Assembly (NCBI GenBank): GCA_963845565.1
Contig: CAWJSJ010000002.1
Location: 2,336,001-2,400,000 of the forward strand
Source of the DNA: an uncultured Methylomirabilota bacterium
Lineage (GTDB): Bacteria; Methylomirabilota; Methylomirabilia; Methylomirabilales; 2-02-FULL-66-22
DNA: 64,000 nt
Reading direction: 5' to 3'
Below the pieces are notes generated by a model. That model ran no database searches. It was not told the origin of the DNA and saw nothing but the letters and a program-made list of their open reading frames with translations. The translations under genes and the position numbers were made by a program. Below are positions 41,462 through 59,121 of this stretch, in pieces; positions within the stretch are counted from its first letter, which is position 1, and each line of letters begins with the position of its first letter.

Positions 41462-41584
41462 AGGCTGCTGAAAAAGGCCCATCTACTGCGTTGGCGCGCT
41501 CGGGCGCTCGTTGCGGCGTACGGGAAGTACGCCTCACTCGACCCATCGCTTGCCGCCTTGTATCTGGACCTTTTTGAGCCGCCC
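41462..41584 (+). mobile_element. MITE-like repeat family A, copy 1
   Basis: Ends AGGCTGCTGAAAAAGGCCC / GGACCTTTTTGAGCCGCC; central GGCGTAC-N5-GTACGCC hairpin. Confidence 0.75.
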
Positions 41585-47456: not shown

Positions 47457-47580
47457 CGGCTGCTGAAAAAGGCCCATCTGCTGCGTTGGACCACTCGCGC
47501 GCTCGTTGCGGCGTACATCCCAGTACGCCTCACTCGGCGCTCCGTGCTCCGCCTTGCATCTGGGCCTTTTTGAGCAGCCT
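47457..47580 (+). mobile_element. MITE-like repeat family A, copy 4
   Basis: CGGCTGCTGAAAAAGGCCCATCT ... GGGCCTTTTTGAGCAGCCT. Confidence 0.75.
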
Positions 47581-48880: not shown

Positions 48881-48956
48881 GCGGGAATAGCTCAGCTGGT
48901 AGAGCACAACCTTGCCAAGGTTGGGGTCGCGGGTTCGAATCCCGTTTCCCGCTCCA
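48881..48956 (+). tRNA. tRNA-Gly(GCC)
   Basis: GCGGGAA acceptor stem, TTGCCAA anticodon loop, GTTCGAATC, CCA end. Confidence 0.98.
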
Positions 48957-48964
48957 AAGAAAGC

Positions 48965-49010
48965 AACCCGGGATTGTGGGCGAAACGCCTGCAATCCCGG
49001 GTTTTCTTTT
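48965..49010 (+). terminator. Intrinsic terminator after tRNA-Gly
   Basis: AACCCGGGATTGTGGGCG/CGCCTGCAATCCCGGGTT stem followed by TTCTTTT. Confidence 0.85.
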
Positions 49011-49072
49011 GCGTGCGGTGTGCTGAGTTTTATACCTTGCAAATCTAAACAATGCGTTTGATAATGCACGGT

Positions 49073-50301
49073 ATGAAACGAGCCTACGAAGGGCTGCTAC
49101 AGTCGTATCTGGGGATGTTTCCGTGTGTCGCCGTCATCGGTGTCCGGCAATGTGGCAAGACGACATTGCTCCAGACTCTGCCGGAAGGCTGGCAGTATTT
49201 CGACCTGGAGCGGCGGGCGGATCATGAGGTCGTTTCCCGCGACGCGGATGCGTTCTTTCGCCTCCATTCCCGACGGGTAGCGCTGGATGAAGTCCAGTTG
49301 ACACCAGAGGTGTTCTCTGCGCTTCGGGTGGCGATTGACGAACACCGCGCGGAGAAGGGCCGATTCGTCGTCACCGGCTCCAGCTCGCCGGAGCTGTTGC
49401 GGTCGGTCTCGGAGAGTCTGGCGGGCCGGGTCGGGATCATTGAGCTGGCACCGTTGTCCTGGGAGGAGGCGACGCAGACCTGCGGGCGGGACTCGATCTT
49501 GCGCCGATTGCGGGACCGAAAGGCCAAGCCCGCAGACCTGATCGAGGGGTTGAGGGCGCGCGGGGACGTGGCGCGAGCGCACGAGTTCTGGTTCCGGGGT
49601 GGATTCCCCGAGCCGTGGCTGAATCCGGGGACGAATTCCGCGAGCGCTGGGTGGAGCAATACCTCCAGACCTACCTGTACCGGGACGTGAAGCGCTTCTT
49701 TCCGGGGTTGGACGATGTCCGGTTCCGGCGATTTCTGGCCATGCTGGGCGGGCTGTCGGGGCGGGTGTTGAACAATGCCGAAGTGGCGCGGGCGCTCGCC
49801 GTGTCCCAGCCGACGGTACGGGATTACTTCGAGATCGCGCACGGCACCTTTGTTTGGCGGCGCATCCCCGCTTTCACGCAGGACGTGGTGAAGCGGGTGG
49901 TGAAGCACCCCCGGGGATATTTGCGCGACAGCGGCTTGCTGCACGCGCTCCTGCGCATCCCGGACACCGACGCGCTGTTGAGCCACCCCCAGATGGGCGC
50001 CTCGTGGGAGGGGATGGTGGTGGAGGAAATCCTCCGCCAGTTGAATGCGCTGGGCGTGGGGCATGAGTATTCGTACTACCGCACCGGCGGCGGCGCAGAG
50101 GTGGATCTGATACTCGAAGGTGACTTCGGTCGCGTGGCCGTCGAGATCAAGCACGCCTCCACCGTGAACGCGCGCGAACTGCGGGGCCTCGGCGACTTCG
50201 TCAGGGAGCACAAGGCGCGCCTGGGCCTGGTGGTCACCAACGACTGCGCGGCCCGGCAATACGATGAGAAGCTGCTGGGACTGCCGTTCAACTGGTTGTA
50301 A
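49073..50301 (+). CDS. AAA_14-type ATPase with DUF4143 C-terminus (one frameshift in a G run near 49630)
   Basis: GVRQCGKTT, LDEVQ, VTGSS, GGFPE; second frame holds YLRDSGLL, GASWEG, EVDLI, VEIK. Confidence 0.85.
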
Positions 50302-50403
50302 GCCGTTGTCAAAGAATACGTTGAGCGGAGACATTTCGAAACGGCATAAGGAGCCGTAACGAAATAGAAAAAGAGGTATAGGTTATTTCGTAACGGCTCC
50401 TAA
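50299..50403 (+). repeat. Palindromic repeat family B, copy 1
   Basis: TAAGCCGTTGTCAAAGAAT...AAACGGCATAAGGAGCCGTAACGAAAT...ATTTCGTAACGGCTCCTAA; the first TAA is the ATPase stop codon. Confidence 0.92.
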
Positions 50404-50805
50404 GAATCGGGCTCCCAACCCACACGCGCCGCGGGCGCGTTTATTCGGCCTGCGGAGAAATTCGAACAGGATGCTTCGGGATGACCTGAGATCTTCAGGC
50501 CGCGGCCTCGCTAGCTCCGCGCTTGACACCAATGCGCGCTTGGCATAGCCTTTCCATCGACTTGGTCCCGCATCAACCGGTGTCCCGGCTGGGGCGCTGA
50601 ACACTCACGGCCCATCCGGTCTCCGCGTCCGATACGATCGCGCTCTCTGGTATGCATCGAGGTGCTGCCGGGCTTCTCGGAAGCTGGGCTGGTTCTCCCA
50701 TACGGAGGACGAGCGACGCAGCGGCCCTTTCGATCGGGGACCAGGGGTCCTCGCGGAGCGCCCACACCTGACCGGTCGACCGCGGGCGGGACGAAGGAGC
50801 AGACC

Positions 50806-51189
50806 ATGGCCGAGACATCCGACCGCCGCCGCGCCGCGCGGCTGACCGTTGCGCGGCATCTTCGCGGCTCCGAACTGGAACTCCACCTCGTGCGACTCCT
50901 CGATCTCAGCCCCACGGGCGCGCGCATCGAGCACCTAGAGCCGATGCGCCAGGGGGGGATGTGTCACCTGGATCTCCCGCCCGCCTTTGGACGGGTCCGG
51001 CTCACCGGCCGGGTCGTATGGACCGAAGTCCGCGGGAGCGAACAGACACTGGAGGGTGATCGCCGTTTCCATCACCAGAGCGGCATCGAGTTCGAAGGGC
51101 TCACCCCCGAGCAGCGCGCCGCCTTGGCCACCGCGCTCGAGACGTTGCGAGCGGCGAGCGAGGCGCCGGACCACCCGTCGCTTCGCTGA
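50806..51189 (+). CDS. PilZ domain protein (putative c-di-GMP receptor)
   Basis: AAGGAG SD; RRAAR (RxxxR) and DLSPTG (DxSxxG) motifs, GRVVW, GIEF. Confidence 0.85.
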   Translation: MAETSDRRRAARLTVARHLRGSELELHLVRLLDLSPTGARIEHLEPMRQGGMCHLDLPPAFGRVRLTGRVVWTEVRGSEQTLEGDRRFHHQSGIEFEGLTPEQRAALATALETLRAASEAPDHPSLR

Positions 51190-51319
51190 CGCCCCGCGGC
51201 GCACGGCGAGACGCATTGCACTCATCAACACGCGCGTCACGTGCCGGATCCTTCCGGCCCGCGCCCCAATGATGGTTCAGGTTGACCGCTCTGGCGAGAT
51301 CGCCTATTATGCACGGTGT

Positions 51320-51395
51320 GGCGCGGTACCCAAGTGGTTAAGGGGGAGGTCTGCAAAACCTTTACTCGGCGGTTCGAATCCGCCCCGCGCCTCCA
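51320..51395 (+). tRNA. tRNA-Cys(GCA)
   Basis: GGCGCGG/CCGCGCC acceptor stem, CTGCAAA loop, GTTCGAATC, TCCA end. Confidence 0.97.
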
Positions 51396-51446
51396 AGTAG
51401 TATAGCCTTCAGCTTTCAGCGATCAGCTTCCGGGTGGTTTCTCATC

Positions 51447-51770
51447 TTACCCTTCGGCTGCCCGTCTCCGCACCAACCGGATCTCCAGCGAGCACCCCAC
51501 CGCCTTCGCGTACTTCTTCAAGGTGGCGATCGTCGGGGAGTGTGTGCTCCCCGACAGCGAGGTCTCTAGCCGCGTCACCGCCGGTGCTTTGGTTCCCATC
51601 TTCTTCGCGACCCCGGCCTGGCTCAGCCCCGCCTGTTGCCGGGCGAGGAGGAGTTCCCGCAGCAGCGCGAACTCGGTGTCGAGCTCGGCGTACCCTTTCA
51701 GAAACGTCGGGTCATTTTTCCACCGCTCCACCATCTGGCGATGGGTGAGCCGCGGTGTCTTCCTGGTCAT
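51447..51770 (-). CDS. XRE-family HTH antitoxin (HigA-like)
   Basis: ARQQAGLSQAGVAKKMGTKAPAVTRLE, SPTIATLKKYAKAVG. Confidence 0.88.
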   Translation of the reverse strand: MTRKTPRLTHRQMVERWKNDPTFLKGYAELDTEFALLRELLLARQQAGLSQAGVAKKMGTKAPAVTRLETSLSGSTHSPTIATLKKYAKAVGCSLEIRLVRRRAAEG

Positions 51771-51961
51771 AGCGTACGTACCTCCCGTTGCCGCCGACGG
51801 GCAAGCGCAAGCTCACGTGTGGGCGTTCCTGGCGTCTTCTTGTCGAGGCCGAACTCTTCGAGGAGTTCGGTCAGTCGGGCGTAGGCCGCCCGGATTCCCA
51901 CGGGCAGGGCCTCGATTTCTAGCCGGACCGCCTCGCTGTAGTAGTCGATCGTCCATGGCAT
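51767..51961 (-). pseudogene. RelE/HigB (Gp49-like) toxin with an internal deletion
   Basis: N-terminus WTIDYYSEAV..IEALPVGIRA.Y.RL joined directly to C-terminal KKTPGTP.RELALARRR; only 64 aa. Confidence 0.7.
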
Positions 51962-52321
51962 GATGAATACATAACATATGTGTTATGCCACGACAAGAGA
52001 AACATCTAAGAATGCCGCTTGTCCGGTGTGGTCCATAAGAACTCTACCCCCCAGGATCCACATATGCGGCCTCACGTGTGGTAAGCAGCCCGTGAGATTG
52101 TTAGCGTCGCCATTCGCCTCCGTATGTTGGAACCGTGCTCCGATCGATCGCAGCAGGGGCCTTTGTACTTCTGGCGAGCCGTCCATGCGATGGAGGAAAT
52201 GGGTCGCGGCTCTCAGAGCTTCCGTTTCTGCTCGAGGCGGATAGCCGACCGCCGACTGTTCGTATGCGCCAGTGGACAATCGTCCGCAGGCTGTGGTAGG
52301 TATCATGTCGGCGCATGCGCT

Positions 52322-52408
52322 GCGGGAGTGGCGAAATAGGCAGACGCGCGAGACTTAAAATCTTGTGCGCGAAAGCGCGTGGGGGTTCGATTCCCCCCTC
52401 CCGCACCA
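52322..52408 (+). tRNA. tRNA-Leu(TAA)
   Basis: GCGGGAG/CTCCCGC acceptor stem, CTTAAAA loop, long variable arm, ACCA end. Confidence 0.97.
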
Positions 52409-52757
52409 TTTCTCGTCCGATAGTCACGAGCCCGACCCATCCCGCAGGGATATCCAGCCCGTCGGCCGCCGCTCGAAGGTCCGCCTCGCTTCCTATATTG
52501 TACCGTCGGGAAAGCTATCAGTTTCTGCAGAGTTGCGGAATCGTCCTCCCAACGCGCCTCGCCACCCACTCCCTCGCAACTACTTGGGATTACACGGTTG
52601 CGTGAATCACGAGTCGTGGCCTTTTGTATTTCTGAAAGCTTGGGCACGGTCTATGCTCTGCCTGACTCAGCGTTATCCATCTCCTTCGGAATATTCTAGA
52701 AAAGAACGGGCGAACAACCATCTTCATTAGCCCACAAACAGCCAGGGAGGACAGAGC

Positions 52758-53081
52758 ATGACCAGCGAGATGGCGGGTACACCTCAGGAGCACGTGTTTC
52801 GGTGGATGGAAGAAGGTCCGACTGTCCTCGCGGGTATTCGCTGTATTGTCCAGGAGGACGCCAACCTCAAGAGGATCGTGGAGGCTACCCAGAAGGAATG
52901 CGAGCGACTCCGGCACGAGTGTGAGCAATTACGCGTCGAGGTCAGCCGACTCACAGCCGGGACCGAGCGCCTCCAGAAAGAGCGGGCCGAAACGGCCCAA
53001 TGGTTCACCGCCATGATGAACGAAGCTGCCGCTCGGCTTCGGCGCGAGCATTCGCCCGCCGTGAGCGATGGCCGCCAATAG
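52758..53081 (+). CDS. Hypothetical coiled-coil protein
   Basis: GGGAGGA SD; heptad pattern ECERLRHECEQLRVEVSRL. Confidence 0.65.
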   Translation: MTSEMAGTPQEHVFRWMEEGPTVLAGIRCIVQEDANLKRIVEATQKECERLRHECEQLRVEVSRLTAGTERLQKERAETAQWFTAMMNEAAARLRREHSPAVSDGRQ

Positions 53082-53395
53082 CCGACACGGCGAGCAGGAG
53101 TGACTCCAGCCTGAGCGTCGGGACTCCCCTCTGCGTCCGGCGTTGGCCATGTTCGTACGTCTGGTGGCCACTTGCGCCACCACACTATCCTTCCCGGAGC
53201 CATTTCATGCGGTGGGCGTGCGGGTCGAGCACCATCGCCCCGGACTTGCCGCGACCTCCCTTTAGATTTGACAGGCTTCGGACCGTCCGCTAGCGTTCCG
53301 GGTATCGGGACGGCGGCGATGCGCATCACGGAGGGCTCCGATGCGCTCTGGGTACCCCCTGCCCGAGGGCGGCCATTCGACGGGGAGCGAGACAG

Positions 53396-53653
53396 GTGAC
53401 GGCGCAACGGGAGATCGGCTATACCTGCTGGCCATGCCGGGACGAGGACGGGCGGGTAGCCGTTCCGGCCACGTACCGACTCCTGGTACGAGAGGTCGGT
53501 AAGAAAGTTGGGGACGAGGTCTGGGGATGCGGCGCGCATATCTGCGAGTTGTACGTGCACATCATCAGCCTGGGGAAACCCCTCGACGTGATCGTCCACA
53601 ACATGGCGACCGGCGCGTGCGTGGCCGAAGCACACCCGAGGCAGGCGGGGTGA
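53396..53653 (+). CDS. Small Cys/His-rich hypothetical protein (possible Zn finger)
   Basis: CWPC and CGAH motifs; GGGGAG SD; ends 14 nt before repeat B2. Confidence 0.55.
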   Translation: MTAQREIGYTCWPCRDEDGRVAVPATYRLLVREVGKKVGDEVWGCGAHICELYVHIISLGKPLDVIVHNMATGACVAEAHPRQAG

Positions 53654-53667
53654 GGCCTCACGGCTCC

Positions 53668-53772
53668 TAAGCCGTTGTCAAAGAACAAATTGAGCGGAGA
53701 CATTCCGAAACGGCATAAGGAGCCGTAACGAAATAGAAAGAGATGTCTAGGTTATTTCGTAACGGCTCCTAA
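53668..53772 (+). repeat. Palindromic repeat family B, copy 2
   Basis: Same consensus as copy 1; preceded by an extra right-end fragment ACGGCTCC. Confidence 0.92.
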
Positions 53773-53784
53773 GGCTCGAATGTC

Positions 53785-54312
53785 ATGACACGCGAGCGGG
53801 GTAGCTTCTGGACGTGGGTGGCGAGGCGCTTGGCGACCGCCCGAGACACCCCGATCGTCCTGGACCGGCGCCAAGCGGAGCGCCGACAACAGCTCCAGCC
53901 TCCAGACGAGGAGCGGCGGCTTACGGACCGTCGGCGTCCGGAAAGCAGCGACCTGGGCGAGGTCGGCGGTTTCTTGGAGGCGGGGATTCATCTCCGGGGC
54001 GTCCTGCAGTTCAGCGGCGCACTCCGCGTCGACGGCCATTTCGAGGGGGAGCAGGTTCGCGGCGAGACGCTCGTCATCGGTGAACACGGATTGGTGAACG
54101 CCGAAATCCGGGTTGAGATTCTGCAGGTCAGCGGTCAGGTGCTGGGGGACGTCACTGCGAAGCGGTGGGTTGAACTCCTCGAGTCGAGCACGGTGACCGG
54201 AACTATCCGTACCCCGCGATTGACGATATGGAAGGGGGCCGTCTTCAACGGGACCTGCGACATGCCCGCCGCACATTCCCCGGAGAGCGAAGTTCTCTCA
54301 CGGCCGGCGTGA
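53785..54312 (+). CDS. Bactofilin (polymer-forming cytoskeletal) protein with Arg-rich N-terminal extension
   Basis: GVLQFSGALRVDGHFEG, LVIGEHGLVNAEI, V.G.I..PRLTI.KGAVFNGTCDM. Confidence 0.88.
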   Translation: MTRERGSFWTWVARRLATARDTPIVLDRRQAERRQQLQPPDEERRLTDRRRPESSDLGEVGGFLEAGIHLRGVLQFSGALRVDGHFEGEQVRGETLVIGEHGLVNAEIRVEILQVSGQVLGDVTAKRWVELLESSTVTGTIRTPRLTIWKGAVFNGTCDMPAAHSPESEVLSRPA

Positions 54313-54415
54313 GCCGTTGTCAAAGAATAACTTGACCGGAGAAATCCCGGGAACGGCATAAGGAGCCGTAACGAAATTCCAAAAAGTGGACAAGCTATTT
54401 CGTAACGGCTCCTAA
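54310..54415 (+). repeat. Palindromic repeat family B, copy 3
   Basis: TGAGCCGTTGTCAAAGAAT...ATTTCGTAACGGCTCCTAA; the first TGA is the bactofilin stop codon. Confidence 0.92.
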
Positions 54416-54658
54416 CGACAGGCGACCTCGTGTGGGATGATCAGGTTCGCGGTCATCCCGGCGGGCGTCGGCGGGCGCGCCTGCACGTCTCTGCGTTCAG
54501 CTTCCTCGCTTCGGTCTACGATGAATTGTCCCCTCGCCGATCTTTCCTCGTGAGCACGCTCACTCCGTGCTGCGTATTCCCGTTCATTCCTATTCGGTTA
54601 CACTCCTCGATCTCGCCGGATCGCTAGGAGCCGGGCAGGTCTCTATCCCTTGGCCGGC

Positions 54659-54982
54659 TCAGGCAGCGGGAAGACACCGGGCGAGTGCCTCGGCGGTGAT
54701 GTCGTCGTGCGAGGCGCTCCACACGACCACGCCCCGCCGGAAGACGATGATCTGGGGCGACTCGTGTTCTATGCCTGACCGCGCCGCGATCTGCTGGGAC
54801 ATGGAGCGCTGCGCGCGAACGTCCACGAGATACGCCGGGATCTGTGGGTGCTGAAGGAGGAAAGCTTCGACCTCGCCCAAGGCCGTCACGCACGTAGGTC
54901 AGGTTGGGCTATGCTTGTACAAGAACGCACGCTCCGCGGTGAAGACATTTTCCAGTTCGCGCTCTTCGCTAATGCGCCGCAT
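54659..54982 (-). CDS. YtxJ/BrxC (DUF2847) thioredoxin-fold redoxin, candidate selenoprotein (in-frame TGA at 54899-54901)
   Basis: GGAGAGGGG SD; LYKHSPT-(TGA)-PTC continues in frame to IEHESPQIIVF and WSASHDDIT; 107 aa with readthrough. Confidence 0.8.
54868..54885 (-). promoter_or_regulatory. Putative bacterial SECIS hairpin
   Basis: CGGCCUU-GGGC-GAGGUCG stem-loop; G-led apical loop 20 nt after the UGA. Confidence 0.55.
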
Positions 54983-55533
54983 GATCCCCTCTCCGACATT
55001 GGCCGCGATGGATGTGCTGGTCCGATTTCGGCCTGTGTATTTATCATTCTTTGGGCGAAGTTTCAATCTGTGGAGGCGGCGCGACCTCACGCGCTCACCT
55101 CTTTTCCACAGATGTCCGACCCTGGCCGCTGAGCCACTGTTTGCTGCCCGCCATTACCTGCGCATAGGACCTCCCATCGAGTCCTGCGGTGGAAAAAGTT
55201 CCTGGCAAACTTTACACCGCCCCGGACCACGGATTTCCCGCGAACCACGTGGCTTTTCCGCTTTGACGACCCATAACCTTTTGCGTTTATGGCTCTCTGC
55301 TTATCGCTCCAGGTGACGATCTCAAATGGCACCGTAATTGCCCTGTATGAATCACGACGAAGAAGGGGGTTAGTCAATCCTGACCCCCGGTCGGCCCCAC
55401 CGGGCCCGCAGTCCTGGCCCTGACACGACACAGCGTGAAGGGGAGGGATCGGAGATGCGGGGAGGGCTCCTGGAGAAGGAGTCTCAGGGGCACTGTAACC
55501 CGGATCGTCATCCGGCAAGAAAGGAGGAGCATC

Positions 55534-55779
55534 ATGAAGTACGGTATCGCAATCACGCACCTGATCTTGGTGCTCACCGTGAGTGGCAGCCTGGCCTTCG
55601 CCGCGACGGAGGTTCCTCGGGTGCCGCCGAAAGGCACGGAGGGCCCGGACGTGCGCGCCAGGGTAGAGCCGAAGGGCCAGGAGGGGCCCGATGTCCGACG
55701 CATCCGTGAAACTGATTGCCACGGCGTGGAAGGGCCGGACGTTCGCCACAATGCCAGCGCCTCTTGTTTCACGCTGTAA
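55534..55779 (+). CDS. Small putatively secreted protein with three GxEGPDVR repeats
   Basis: AGGAGGAG SD, signal peptide ending in AFA, three EGPDVR repeats, two Cys. Confidence 0.75.
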   Translation: MKYGIAITHLILVLTVSGSLAFAATEVPRVPPKGTEGPDVRARVEPKGQEGPDVRRIRETDCHGVEGPDVRHNASASCFTL

Positions 55780-55881
55780 GCCGTTGTCAACGAATTAGTT
55801 GAGCGGAGACATTCCGAAACGGCATAAGGAGCCGTAACGAAATAGAAAGAGATGTCTAGGTTATTTCGTAACGGCTCCTAA
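55777..55881 (+). repeat. Palindromic repeat family B, copy 4
   Basis: Near-identical to copy 2; the first TAA is the stop codon of the repeat peptide. Confidence 0.92.
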
Positions 55882-56193
55882 GGGGCACCCTGCATAGTGG
55901 ATCCCACTGCTGACCGACCGGCCGGGGAGGCGCGGTAACCTCGTCATGACGCGACCGCCTCCCCGGCCTAGCCTCACGCCCAGTCCCCGGTTTCGCGCCC
56001 CAGCCGGTCCAGTGCTCTCTAATCGCGTACGGAGCAGGATGCCCTGGTGAGGGGCCCTGCGCATCTTGCGACTCCCGCTTCTCAAGTGGCTCTGTCGGGC
56101 GCCCCTCGCCGCCGGCTCGTATCAACCGCACAACCATCCGGTGGGGGGACGGTGTTTCCGGATGTTTCGAGATCTTTCCCCACAGGTTTTCTC

Positions 56194-56223
56194 TTGACAC
56201 GTGATAACGATCACAATTCTAAT
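56194..56223 (+). promoter_or_regulatory. Putative promoter with an overlapping palindromic operator
   Basis: TTGACA followed by GTGAT-AACG-ATCAC palindrome (LacI-like) and TCTAAT. Confidence 0.45.
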
Positions 56224-56316
56224 CACTATCGTCCGGCGAGCGTCTTGGACCGCTGCGCGGCTAGGCCGGTTTCATTCACACACTGCACGGCATTCACTCG
56301 CAAAGGAGAACCACTC

Positions 56317-57666
56317 ATGATCTCACCGAAGCTCCTCAAGCGCCACGCGGCCGGCAACCCGATCAAGGTCGGCTGGGTGGGGGCCGGCCGCATGATCACC
56401 GGGGCGATCTGCCAGACGGCGCTCATGAAAGGGATGCGCAACGCCGTGATCTGTGACATCCGCCCGGAGGTCGCTATCCGGGCGTATGAGATCAACGGCG
56501 TGAAGAAGCAGGACATCGTGTTCTCGGAACAGCTGGGCCCGATCAACGACGCGCTGCGGGCCGGGAAGCCGGTGATCACCCAGGACAGCCACCTGATGCC
56601 CGCCCTGGAGGTGGACTGCGTGGTGGAGGGGACGGGCGTCCCCGAGGTGGGGGCGAGCGTGGCCTATCGCTGCATCCAGGGCGGGAAGCACATCATCATG
56701 CTGAACGTCGAGGCGGACGTGGTGATCGGCCCGATCCTGCACCAGATGGCGGAGCGGGCCGGCGTGGTCTATTCCGTGTCGAGCGGCGACGAGCCCGGCC
56801 TGATCACCGAGCTGGTGGACCGCTGGGGCGGCCTGGGGTTCGAGATCGTGGCGGTGGGCAAGACGCCGGCCAGCCTGGGGAAGCTGGATCTGTACTGCAC
56901 CCCCGACACGCTCGCCGCCGAGGCCAAGCAGCTCAACGTCAACCCCCACTTCTTGGTGACGTTCCGGGATGCGACCAAGACCGCCATCGAGATGTCCTGC
57001 ATCGCCAACGCCACCGGGCTCATCCCCGACGTGCGGGGAATGCACGGGCCGGTGGCCGGCATCTACGAGATGGCCAATGTCTTCCGACTCAAGGCCGAGG
57101 GCGGCCTCCTCAACAACCGGGGCGTGGTGGACTACGCGCGGCCCCTCAAGAACGCCGACGGCTCCATCGACTACCTGCGCAGCGTGACCCCCGGGGTGTT
57201 CGTCGTCGTCCGGGCCACCCACCCCCAGATCCAGCAGGACCTCGGGTATTTCGACGTCGTGCACACCGGCGAGTACTTCACGTTCCACACCCCCTACCAC
57301 CTGGTCACCAACGAGATCCCGCTGTCCATCGTCTGGGCCGTCGAGGATGGGGAGCCGACGGTGGTGCCGCGGCACGGGTTGCTGGCGGAGGTCCTGGGCG
57401 CCGCCAAGGCCGACCTGAAGGCGGGCACCATCCTGGATGGCGGCGGCGGCTTCACGCTCTACGGGGTGAACGACCTGGCCTGCGTGGCCAAGCGGGAGGG
57501 GTGCGTCCCCTTGGGCCTGCTCGACGGGGCCACGCTGCGCACCGCCGTCAAGAAAGATCAGGTCATCACCCACGACATGGTGCAGCTCCAGACGGAGACG
57601 ATGCTCTACCACCTGCGGCGGATCCAGGACGAGGTGCTGCCGCCGACGGACGTCAGCCGGAGCTGA
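56317..57666 (+). CDS. NAD(P)-dependent oxidoreductase, homoserine-dehydrogenase-like with C-terminal SAF domain
   Basis: AAGGAG SD; VGWVGAGRM Rossmann motif, NVEADVVIGP.L, GDEPG, TKTAIEM..IANATG; SAF-like AKADLKAG..LDG.GG. Confidence 0.85.
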   Translation: MISPKLLKRHAAGNPIKVGWVGAGRMITGAICQTALMKGMRNAVICDIRPEVAIRAYEINGVKKQDIVFSEQLGPINDALRAGKPVITQDSHLMPALEVDCVVEGTGVPEVGASVAYRCIQGGKHIIMLNVEADVVIGPILHQMAERAGVVYSVSSGDEPGLITELVDRWGGLGFEIVAVGKTPASLGKLDLYCTPDTLAAEAKQLNVNPHFLVTFRDATKTAIEMSCIANATGLIPDVRGMHGPVAGIYEMANVFRLKAEGGLLNNRGVVDYARPLKNADGSIDYLRSVTPGVFVVVRATHPQIQQDLGYFDVVHTGEYFTFHTPYHLVTNEIPLSIVWAVEDGEPTVVPRHGLLAEVLGAAKADLKAGTILDGGGGFTLYGVNDLACVAKREGCVPLGLLDGATLRTAVKKDQVITHDMVQLQTETMLYHLRRIQDEVLPPTDVSRS

Positions 57667-57759
57667 GGATCGGCGGCGCCCCGACCTTGACAACCGCAAT
57701 GTCGTCATCTACTCAATGAAAGGAGGAGCGAGCGGAATCGAGATTTGATGGGCCCCCGT

Positions 57760-57865
57760 TAAGCCGTTCTCAAAGAATAACTTGACCGGAGACATTTCGG
57801 GAACGGCATAAGGAGCCGTAACGAAATTACAACAAATGGACAAGTTATTTCGTAACGGCTCCTGA
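57760..57865 (+). repeat. Palindromic repeat family B, copy 5
   Basis: TAAGCCGTTCTCAAAGAATAACTTGACC...ATTTCGTAACGGCTCCTGA; same subtype as copy 3. Confidence 0.92.
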
Positions 57866-57937
57866 GATGCCATGCTCCCCGCGGGGTTTGGTGTTCCGGT
57901 TCCCGCAGAAGCAGGCCTCGAGACGGGTGGAGGTTCT

Positions 57938-58231
57938 ATGGAGGTCGAGTCGGCGGATTCCCAGGATGCGATCCGGACGCGCCTCCAGCGCCGGGTGGCG
58001 CTGATGGTGGAGCATGTCCAGGCGATCGAGGGGCTCCTCGATGGGCTGCAGACGGCGCTGCAGGATCCGGCCACCTCCTCGCTCGGTCAGGTCCATGTCA
58101 AGGCGCTTCAGGACGTGTCGGATATCCTGCGCGAATGTCAGCAACTCGCCTTCTCCAACGCCTCGGACATCATCCGGGACACGGAGGAAGACTCCCGACG
58201 ATCGGACGCCGGCTCTCCCGGCGGGGATTGA
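57938..58231 (+). CDS. Hypothetical helical protein
   Basis: GGAGGT SD before ATG 57938; amphipathic helical pattern. Confidence 0.55.
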   Translation: MEVESADSQDAIRTRLQRRVALMVEHVQAIEGLLDGLQTALQDPATSSLGQVHVKALQDVSDILRECQQLAFSNASDIIRDTEEDSRRSDAGSPGGD

Positions 58232-58410
58232 GGTCCCGGCGTGCGACTCGCGAAGCGTCGCCGCCGTGTTCCCGCGGTTTCCCGCCCTTTCTGTCTCCTT
58301 GCCAATCCCGGCGCATCTCACTAGAATACCATCGGTGCGAGCTATTGACGCGGCTTCCAGGGCTGATGGTTCGTTTCGTCTCCCGTTGCCACATCAGGGG
58401 TAGGTGACGC

Positions 58411-59121
58411 ATGGAGCAGGTGCTCAATGAGTTCGTGGGGGAGGTGCAGTATCTGTACGGGAGCGACCTCGTCGCCGTCTTCCTGTACGGAAGCGCGGTC
58501 ACCGGCGAGCACGTTCCGGGGCGCTCAGATATCAACGTGGCGGTCCTCCTCGCCGAGGTCACCGCGGCGGCGCTGCGCAAGGCATCCGGGAAGCTCCGCG
58601 GTTGGGCCCGCCAGGGATTCGCCACGCCCGTGTTCTTCGATGTGGAGTTCCTGCGCGACGCGCTGGACGTCTTTCCCATCGAGCTCCTCGACATGCAAGA
58701 GCGCCACCGGATGCTCTGCGGACCGGACGTTTTGGCCGGGCTGCAGATCGAGGTCGGAGCGCTGCGCCGCCAGTGCGAGCAGGAACTGCGCGGGACGCTG
58801 CTCAAGCTCCGGCAGGCGTACCTCGAATCCTCCCCATCCCCGAAGGACCTGCAGATCGTCCTCACCGCGGCGGCGAGCGGCTTGGTCGTGTTGGCCCGGA
58901 CGCTTCTGCACTTGGCGCGGGCGGATGAGAGCGGCGGCACCGAGGCGGTGTTCCGGCGAGTCGAAACCCAGTTCGGCGTCCGCGTGGCGCACCTCCGCAA
59001 GGCGTGGCAGCTCAAGCGCGGCGAGGCGCGCGTGACGGGATCGGAGATTGATCTGCTGTACCAAGGCGTGCTGGAGGAATTTCAGCACCTCGTGCGGGTG
59101 GCGAATGCGCTCCCGGCGTAG
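58411..59121 (+). CDS. Pol-beta-type nucleotidyltransferase-domain protein
   Basis: AVFLYGSAVTGE..PGRSDINV, DVFPIE.LDM; overlaps the TPM gene start. Confidence 0.8.
   Translation: MEQVLNEFVGEVQYLYGSDLVAVFLYGSAVTGEHVPGRSDINVAVLLAEVTAAALRKASGKLRGWARQGFATPVFFDVEFLRDALDVFPIELLDMQERHRMLCGPDVLAGLQIEVGALRRQCEQELRGTLLKLRQAYLESSPSPKDLQIVLTAAASGLVVLARTLLHLARADESGGTEAVFRRVETQFGVRVAHLRKAWQLKRGEARVTGSEIDLLYQGVLEEFQHLVRVANALPA

Follow-up and report, generated by a model that had tools for sequence, protein, structure and literature searches.

What are the five palindromic repeats that stand among small, unrelated genes in a 64,000-nucleotide (nt) stretch of DNA from an uncultured Methylomirabilota bacterium? 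The whole 64-kb stretch is referred to here as the window, and its source genome (G000) is 5.36 Mb in size, assembled in 6 contigs and 98.7% complete. A preliminary description made from the letters of the window had offered two answers. The repeats were either the sites of a gene-capture system distinct from integrons, with the genes between them as cargo, or copies of a miniature element that targets TAA and TGA triplets and has colonised a genomic island. The analysis presented here favors a form of the second answer. The five repeats belong to a family of non-coding mobile elements, 102 nt in length (GCCGTT...GGCTCC-TAA), whose members lie directly behind TAA-like triplets and in many cases on a stop codon. 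A DDE transposase of the ISAzo13 family, not visibly encoded in G000, probably spread them in trans.

A repeat search of the window returned a single family of 107 nt in five copies, all on the forward strand, with starts at 50299, 53668, 54311, 55777 and 57761, and no further copies of this family within the 64 kb. The five co-oriented repeats of ~105 nt that had been described are therefore present, and their alignment reproduces the proposed consensus, TRA-GCCGTT...AACGGCA-TAA-GGAGCCGTAACGAAAT-loop-ATTTCGTAACGGCTCC-TRA. The loop sequence divides them into two subfamilies, one composed of copies 1, 2 and 4 and the other of copies 3 and 5. Every copy folds into a branched 5' stem (GCCGTT...AACGGC) and a long 3' hairpin in which GGAGCCGTAACGAAAT pairs with ATTTCGTAACGGCTCC, interrupted by a single, invariant A-A mismatch. 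The hairpin energies range from -35 to -44 kcal/mol and the fold z-scores of the five copies from -5.6 to -7.7, with 0 of 200 shuffles folding equally well. An Rfam scan of positions 49000-59000 (E<=1) recovered tRNAs only, with no family matching the repeat. The element is 102-105 nt long and non-coding, as no open reading frame (ORF) spans it and its frames contain stops. Reading the sequence also bears out that copies 1, 3 and 4 begin on the stop codon of the upstream gene and that copy 2 begins 14 nt past the TGA of the ORF at 53396-53653. Directly before copy 2 lie 9 nt, CACGGCTCC, that are likely the 3' tip of an older copy and would be the trace of a tandem insertion at an element-borne TAA.

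Though the repeats occur only in this 7.5-kb stretch as far as the window is concerned, the same cannot be said of the genome. An nhmmer search of G000 with a profile built from the five window copies found 192 full-length copies, 96 on each strand and distributed over 6 of 6 contigs. Approximately 25 additional independent fragments (E<1e-3) are truncations or internal deletions. The size and copy number of the family are those of a miniature inverted-repeat transposable element (MITE). Spacing of the copies is near random, with a median of 19 kb and 38 neighbor pairs closer than 5 kb versus 30 expected. The window cluster, with five copies in 7.5 kb, is the densest in G000 but exceeds chance only mildly, as five copies within 8 kb were reached in 35 of 1000 trials in which 189 copies were placed at random. 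The G+C content of the cluster stretch is 62.6%, versus 66% for the genome. The earlier idea of a colonising miniature element is thus retained, but what has been colonised is the whole genome and not the island alone.

Comparison with relatives separates the history of the repeats from that of the genes. The repeat is found in 4 of 20 other genomes of the genus, and 20 genomes from other families of the order contain none. The nearest relative, G009, is 88-94% identical to G000 and carries the window genes in the same order. Within its syntenic 17 kb, nhmmer detected one of the five repeats, copy 3, which is degenerate there and likewise has TGA. Since the genes of G009 stand in order with one of the five repeats, the repeats moved while the genes stayed, and copy 3 is the oldest of the five because it is common to both genomes. 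The nhmmer search found no repeat at the copy 2 position of the G009 region. At the copy 4 site, G009 has a precise empty site, where the gene is present and a single TAA serves as its stop codon. G009 is without window positions 57718-58149, which include copy 5, and its syntenic region also lacks the segment from tRNA-Gly to tRNA-Cys (48957-51269), which contains the AAA_14/DUF4143 ATPase, copy 1 and the PilZ gene. When 22 G009 copies were checked against G000, 3 sites were empty and 5 were shared. At the 3 empty G000 sites the two sequences have diverged too far to show the exact target. In run X1, a metagenome contig of depth 4.9 passes over copy 1 with exactly 102 nt left out.

These comparisons do not support the gene-capture array. 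The preliminary description had named scattered copies on both strands, together with conserved synteny, as the pattern that would speak against cassettes, and this is the pattern formed by the 192 dispersed copies and the G009 gene order. It had also proposed comparing the order of the cargo between strains; the order is unchanged in G009 while the repeats differ, and cassettes do not vary as units.

The position of the copies relative to genes was analyzed for 189 anchored copies with a crude codon-usage gene caller of our own (4448 genes, 79% coding), so that the stop statistics are approximate. Only 1 of the 189 copies lies inside a gene. The 5' triplet is the stop codon of a co-oriented upstream gene in 80 of 189 copies (58 TAA, 16 TGA and 6 TAG), which supports the earlier alternative of an element that targets TAA and TGA. 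Another 19 copies supply a TAG stop to a gene on the opposite strand, through the CTA of the ...CTCCTAA end. Among the TAA-flanked copies, 58 of 121 are on stops, versus 11% expected from the available non-coding and stop TAA sites (binomial p=3e-24); the expected share is 16% when only G/C-flanked TAA sites are counted. With respect to the upstream gene, 130 copies are co-oriented and 59 are opposite. One insertion can be read against paralogues in the same genome. A groEL paralogue that carries the repeat ends in ATGTAC-TAA-repeat, and the two repeat-free paralogues end in ATGTAC-TAA. The three groES-groEL paralogue pairs are 86-89% identical and are located at G000:C1:322890-324901, C2:912970-914990 and C3:94903-96887, with the repeat on the TAA stop of the C1 copy only.

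The two flanks of the element do not behave alike. Of the 189 copies, 164 carry TAA as the 3' triplet, as against 121 with TAA on the 5' side, where TGA (22), CAA (13), TAG (9) and TAC (8) also occur. Among 157 copies, the mixed flank pairs TGA/TAA (17), CAA/TAA (12) and TAG/TAA (7) occur in place of the expected TGA/TGA type, and the repeat thus does not have the identical, fixed-length target-site duplication of a MITE. Among the youngest 66 copies, departures from TAA number 15 at the 5' triplet and 3 at the 3' triplet (Fisher p=0.004). For the 22 copies that fall in groups with identical bodies, the corresponding numbers are 7 and 0. Because the youngest copies and the identical-body groups both show it, the asymmetry is not the product of decay. 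One shared copy has TGA in G000 and TAA in G009, so later mutation of the triplet occurs as well. TTA flanks, which would mark the other orientation, are nearly absent, with 3 of 189 at either end. The target supplies the 5' triplet, in which one base may depart from TAA, and the TAA on the 3' side is constant. With respect to this asymmetric triplet the element is always oriented the same way. The idea that copies inherit their 5' triplet from a master was rejected, as variants occur within identical-body groups. Duplications of TA, AA or A, or one placed beyond the 3' TAA, were compared with the flank lists by eye as other models, and none fits. Contigs of 4 of 4 runs pass from the flank into the element at the youngest TGA-flanked copy (G000:C2:246588) and show no empty allele there.

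The ends of the element provide the link to a transposase family. The terminal inverted repeats are 26-29 nt long and are composed of a 13-nt tip and an inner AATAAC-TGNCC box (AATAAC-TGGCC-type). The 5' end, GCCGTTGTCAAAG-AATAACTTGACC, is the counterpart of the reverse complement of the 3' end, GGAGCCGTTACGA-AATAAC(C/T)T.G, with the tips 3 nt apart in register. Between lineages the inner box changes in step at both ends, and terminal inverted repeats are a trait that the element shares with MITEs. The internal segments are additional copies of the tip, with which each end pairs to form a hairpin of its own.

A search for the exact 19-nt 3' end matched at least 98 stretches of GTDB representative genomes, including metagenome-assembled genomes (MAGs) labelled as several phyla. 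Among the matches listed, record titles name Desulfobulbaceae, Desulfocapsaceae, Desulfoarculaceae, Desulfobacterales, Chromatiaceae, Nitrospirota, Holophagaceae, Elusimicrobia and Methylomirabilota, and two records are isolates, Hydrosulfovibrio ferrireducens CB1MN and Desulforhopalus sp. IMCC35007. The matches listed contain 66 distinct full two-domain copies, with hardly any variation at the junction ...ACGGCA-TAA-GGAGCCGTAACGAAAT. In 46 copies from many genomes, pairing of both helices is kept at 93-96%, with double changes at 4 of 21 pairs, which is a weak test because the 3' arm was fixed by the search pattern. Pairing was counted on our own structure; the RNAalifold consensus had paired the two ends.

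One of these loci, in an Elusimicrobia MAG (L066/L067), contains a 1.2-kb element bounded by the ends of the repeat. Between them is a PF07592 (DDE_Tnp_ISAZ013) transposase in two frames, with E-values of 4.8e-80 and 6.3e-26. The right end of the L067 element is identical to copies 1, 2 and 4 over 24 of 24 uninterrupted nt and to copy 3 over 20 nt. Eighty related ISAzo13-type loci from metagenomes have the same end layout and TNA flanks. In 39 classifiable ISAzo13-like insertion sequences from metagenomes, the tips are GG/GA and the flanks are TNA triplets, which are identical in 26 and differ in the middle base in 13. The DNA just outside the left end of the L067 element (L067 100-190) contains, in reverse complement, TAAGCCCTTGTC, of which 11 of 12 nt match the 5' start of the repeat, TAAGCCGTTGTC. 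This sequence may be a remnant of a neighboring miniature copy, or it may be a chance match.

No enzyme of this kind was recovered from the source genome. G000 was searched for PF07592, PF01609, PF13586, PF13358 and PF07282 without a match, and self-BLAST revealed no multi-copy insertion sequence, the long repeats being the groES-groEL paralogues and internal repeats of large genes. The preliminary description had proposed looking for a transposase or recombinase flanked by the ends of the repeat. In G000, no pair of ends encloses a transposase, and the fragments are truncations or internal deletions. Its hint at the IS5 family did not hold either, as G000 has no PF01609 or PF13586 transposase and the sole insertion sequence found to share the ends of the repeat is of the ISAzo13 family. 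The IS5-type, IS200-type and ISAzo13 loci of relatives were considered as a source and rejected since their ends do not match the repeat. In one relative that is without the 105-nt repeat, a different inverted-repeat element of ~200 nt (L012, G005:C44, positions 2350-2548) was noted. It has TAGCCGTTACACAAAGGTGTTGA at both ends and an apparent flanking direct repeat of ~10 bp, AGACTCGCCC, as read by eye, and lies ~500 nt downstream of an IS200-type tnpA.

Several points weigh against assigning the repeat to an ISAzo13 transposase. This transposase was not found in G000, at 98.7% completeness and 6 contigs, or in 3 of 4 other repeat-bearing genomes, and the ISAzo13 copies of repeat-free relatives have ends that do not match. 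Of the 98 loci listed, 1 has an insertion sequence whose ends match, and the transposase gene in it carries a frameshift. A 3-bp staggered DDE cut should leave identical flanks in either orientation, but TGA/TAA and CAA/TAA pairs are seen and TTA is nearly absent. The expectation for stop codons is approximate, too, given the crude gene calls (79% coding). Moreover, the element has the hallmarks of HUH single-strand transposition and not of DDE transposition: its orientation is fixed, its target lies 5', both ends carry hairpins and no duplication is left. In its flanks, the repeat resembles HUH elements or core-matching recombination more closely than the product of a staggered DDE cut. Either the cognate insertion sequence has been lost or was never assembled, or another enzyme is responsible.

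That other enzyme could be an HUH/Y1 single-strand transposase, which would make the repeat a PATE-like derivative of IS200/IS605 or a REP/RAYT-like element whose hairpins are read on one strand, which inserts 3' of a TAA-like target and which ends in its own TAA cleavage site. Such an enzyme would account for an orientation fixed to the asymmetric triplet, for the variable 5' triplet and constant 3' TAA in place of a true duplication, and for a hairpin that adjoins each end, including the 3' hairpin with its invariant A-A mismatch. G000 also encodes 4 long genes with a Y1_Tnp domain, but 0 of the 4 is flanked by the repeat. Y1 genes are present in 21 of 21 genomes of the genus and the repeat in 5 of 21, so that the presence of one does not track the other. 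The canonical IS200-type TnpA is absent from G000 and G013, and no TnpB was found in G000. IS608 has guide sequences that are complementary to its cleavage site. In the repeat, the triplet 5' of the 3' hairpin is TAA, which is identical to the cleavage triplet and not complementary to it. Homology links the ends, inner box included, with the inverted repeats of an insertion sequence of the DDE type (PF07592), and movement by an HUH enzyme is considered unlikely.

Two explanations remain. The repeat could be mainly a useful structure in the RNA or DNA of the host, such as a stabiliser of mRNA 3' ends, an attenuator within operons or a terminator, whose location at gene ends is kept by selection; this could hold alongside the mobile-element reading. 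The strong hairpins, the 2:1 excess of copies co-oriented with the upstream gene, the ~3-fold enrichment of stops beyond TAA availability and the pairing of both helices across 46 copies are consistent with such a role. Against it, no U-tract follows the hairpin, Rfam gave no match, one third of the copies are antisense to their neighbors, and the distribution is patchy even in close relatives of the genus. What is conserved is sequence rather than a covarying structure, with a double change in 4 of 21 pairs in a comparison where the search pattern fixed the 3' arm, and a primary host function appears improbable. The other explanation is a gene-cassette system, similar to integrons or of a new kind, in which a recombinase encoded at another locus would act on the repeats and capture the genes between them. 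Small, unrelated genes are indeed bounded by the five co-oriented copies, which adjoin stops as attC sites do, their cluster is the densest in G000, and the genome does encode a bona fide integron integrase (G000:C2:1646488-1647432, full length, TIGR02249 483 bits versus a cut-off of 265). This integrase is 740 kb from the window repeats. The 192 copies are dispersed on both strands, mostly between ordinary genes and even after a groEL paralogue, and gene order in G009 is the same with one of the five repeats. The preliminary description had already noted that the repeats are without the RYYYAAC...GTTRRRY ends of attC sites, and this pair is indeed absent from the array in both the alignment and a strict scan; the strict scan, which had no positive control, also found none beside intI. 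A cassette system is therefore hardly credible as the source of the repeats.

Among known systems, the repeat is close to the bacterial MITEs that use TA-containing targets at gene ends, such as Correia/NEMIS of Neisseria, RUP of S. pneumoniae, ERIC, and Chunjie of Geobacter. Like these, the repeat is ~100 nt long, non-coding, high in copy number, intergenic and patchy in distribution, has hairpins and terminal inverted repeats related to insertion sequences, and often overlaps stop codons without harm to genes. Unlike them, it has flanks that are not a true duplication, a fixed orientation, ends that are each folded on an internal copy of the tip, and near-identical ends across several phyla. 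With ISAzo13 insertion sequences (PF07592) it shares the 24-nt right end, the GG tip, a GCCGTT-type core, an inner box like AATAAC-TTGAAC and TNA flanks. It differs from them in having no transposase, in its length of 102 nt versus ~1.3 kb, and in being almost always TAA-oriented, whereas the insertion sequences have both TAA and TTA flanks. The PATE, IS200/IS605 and REP/RAYT families have targets of 4-5 nt. The repeat is like these families in its end hairpins, single orientation, insertion 3' of a short target, lack of duplication and right end that repeats the target, which is a likeness in behavior and not proof of membership. It is unlike them in having a 3-nt target, no linked cognate Y1 gene, and inverted-repeat ends that have their homologues in a DDE insertion sequence. 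Integron attC sites are also imperfect palindromes (~60-120 nt class) that adjoin stops and are co-oriented in a local array, but the repeat is dispersed on both strands, does not have the RYYYAAC/GTTRRRY boxes, leaves gene order unchanged where it is absent and is far from IntI. Taken together, the repeat works like a MITE derived from an insertion sequence of the ISAzo13 family, and it departs from the definition of a MITE in its flanks and fixed orientation.

If the repeat is an ISAzo13-derived element, its spread can be pictured as follows. The transposase would recognise the inner boxes. The 3' TAA would either travel with the element or be regenerated, so that a gene hit at its stop codon stays intact. 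Insertions within genes and regulatory DNA would be removed by purifying selection, and gene ends would thus become enriched. The "array" of the window would then be a cluster produced by chance and opportunity in a variable region that has lower G+C and short genes and is linked to tRNAs. A more specific proposal, offered as a tentative possibility, is that the ISAzo13 family and its miniature derivatives dock one-way behind a triplet that matches their own right-end triplet, with one mismatch tolerated. This short "core-matching" insertion would be unlike that of textbook DDE elements.

The genes between 49052 and 57666 are flanking genes and not cargo of the repeats, though a Pfam scan did confirm the names that had been given to them as cargo (Table 1). 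The overlapping AAA_14 and DUF4143 ORFs are possibly one frameshifted gene. The HTH/Gp49-like pair at 51447-51961 is, in our reading of the sequence, a putative toxin-antitoxin pair. A cluster of three tRNAs on the forward strand frames the variable segment, and 48957-51269 resembles a small strain-specific insertion within this cluster. The BrxC-like monothiol redoxin ORF (76 amino acids; region 54659-55047, reverse strand) covers positions 35-102 only of its profile. The window also contains a second, unrelated palindromic repeat of ~120 nt, at 41463-41583 and 47458-47579 (GGCTGCTGAAAAAGGCCC...GGGCCTTTTTGAGCAGCC). It has 138 genome BLAST matches of at least 100 nt, and some of its copies adjoin fragments of the 102-nt family.

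Table 1. Repeat copies, genes and tRNAs between positions 48881 and 57865 of the window
Feature	Position	Strand	Description
tRNA-Gly	48881-48956		tRNA cluster framing the variable segment
AAA_14 ORF	49052-49690		Pfam; overlaps the DUF4143 ORF
DUF4143 ORF	49615-50301		Pfam; overlaps the AAA_14 ORF
Repeat copy 1	50299-50403	+	5' TAA (50299-50301) is the stop of the DUF4143 ORF; 99-nt body; 3' TAA 50401-50403
PilZ gene	50662-51189		Pfam
tRNA-Cys	51320-51395		tRNA cluster
HTH_3 gene	51447-51770	-	Pfam
Gp49-like ORF	51767-51961	-	small ORF
tRNA-Leu	52322-52408		tRNA cluster
Coiled-coil ORF	52758-53081
Cys-rich ORF	53396-53653
Repeat remnant	53659-53667	+	9 nt, CACGGCTCC, directly before copy 2; 8 of 9 nt match the last bases of the element, AACGGCTCC
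Repeat copy 2 (reference copy)	53668-53772	+	5' TAA; branched stem 53671-53714; internal TAA 53716-53718; 3' hairpin 53719-53769; 3' TAA 53770-53772
Bactofilin	53785-54312		Pfam
Repeat copy 3	54310-54415	+	5' TGA is the stop of the bactofilin ORF; second subfamily, other loop
BrxC-like redoxin	54659-54889	-	Pfam
Peptide ORF	55534-55779		81-amino-acid secreted peptide
Repeat copy 4	55777-55881	+	5' TAA is the stop of the secreted-peptide ORF
DRL_cat/SAF oxidoreductase	56317-57666		Pfam
Repeat copy 5	57760-57865	+	5' TAA on no called stop (SAF/DRL gene ends 94 nt upstream); 3' triplet TGA

Judged by titles and the opening lines of abstracts, no published description of this repeat was found, the ISAzo13 papers listed include none on mechanism, and the end motifs appear in no relevant paper. 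For annotation, the repeats account for many of the palindromes at gene ends in Methylomirabilota and in MAGs of sulfate reducers, and annotating them as integrons, terminators or regulatory RNAs is best avoided. In public runs, Logan contigs stop at these copies, and the repeats thus fragment short-read assemblies. For transposon biology, the ISAzo13 transposase family becomes linked to a very abundant miniature element that crosses phyla, and the flank statistics are at odds with a simple staggered-cut duplication. The asymmetric flanks and the tie to an uncharacterised transposase family deserve attention. The carried-triplet mechanism, if real, would be a new mode of insertion for a family named for its DDE transposase. 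Core-matching insertion, if true, would make stop codons safe landing pads and would explain how one parasite of 102 nt, its ends nearly identical throughout, has spread through Methylomirabilota, Desulfobacterota, Nitrospirota, Elusimicrobia, Acidobacteriota and Gammaproteobacteria. The family also offers transposon biology a natural case in which the inserted element lands on the stop codon of a host gene, or recreates it, and the gene is spared.

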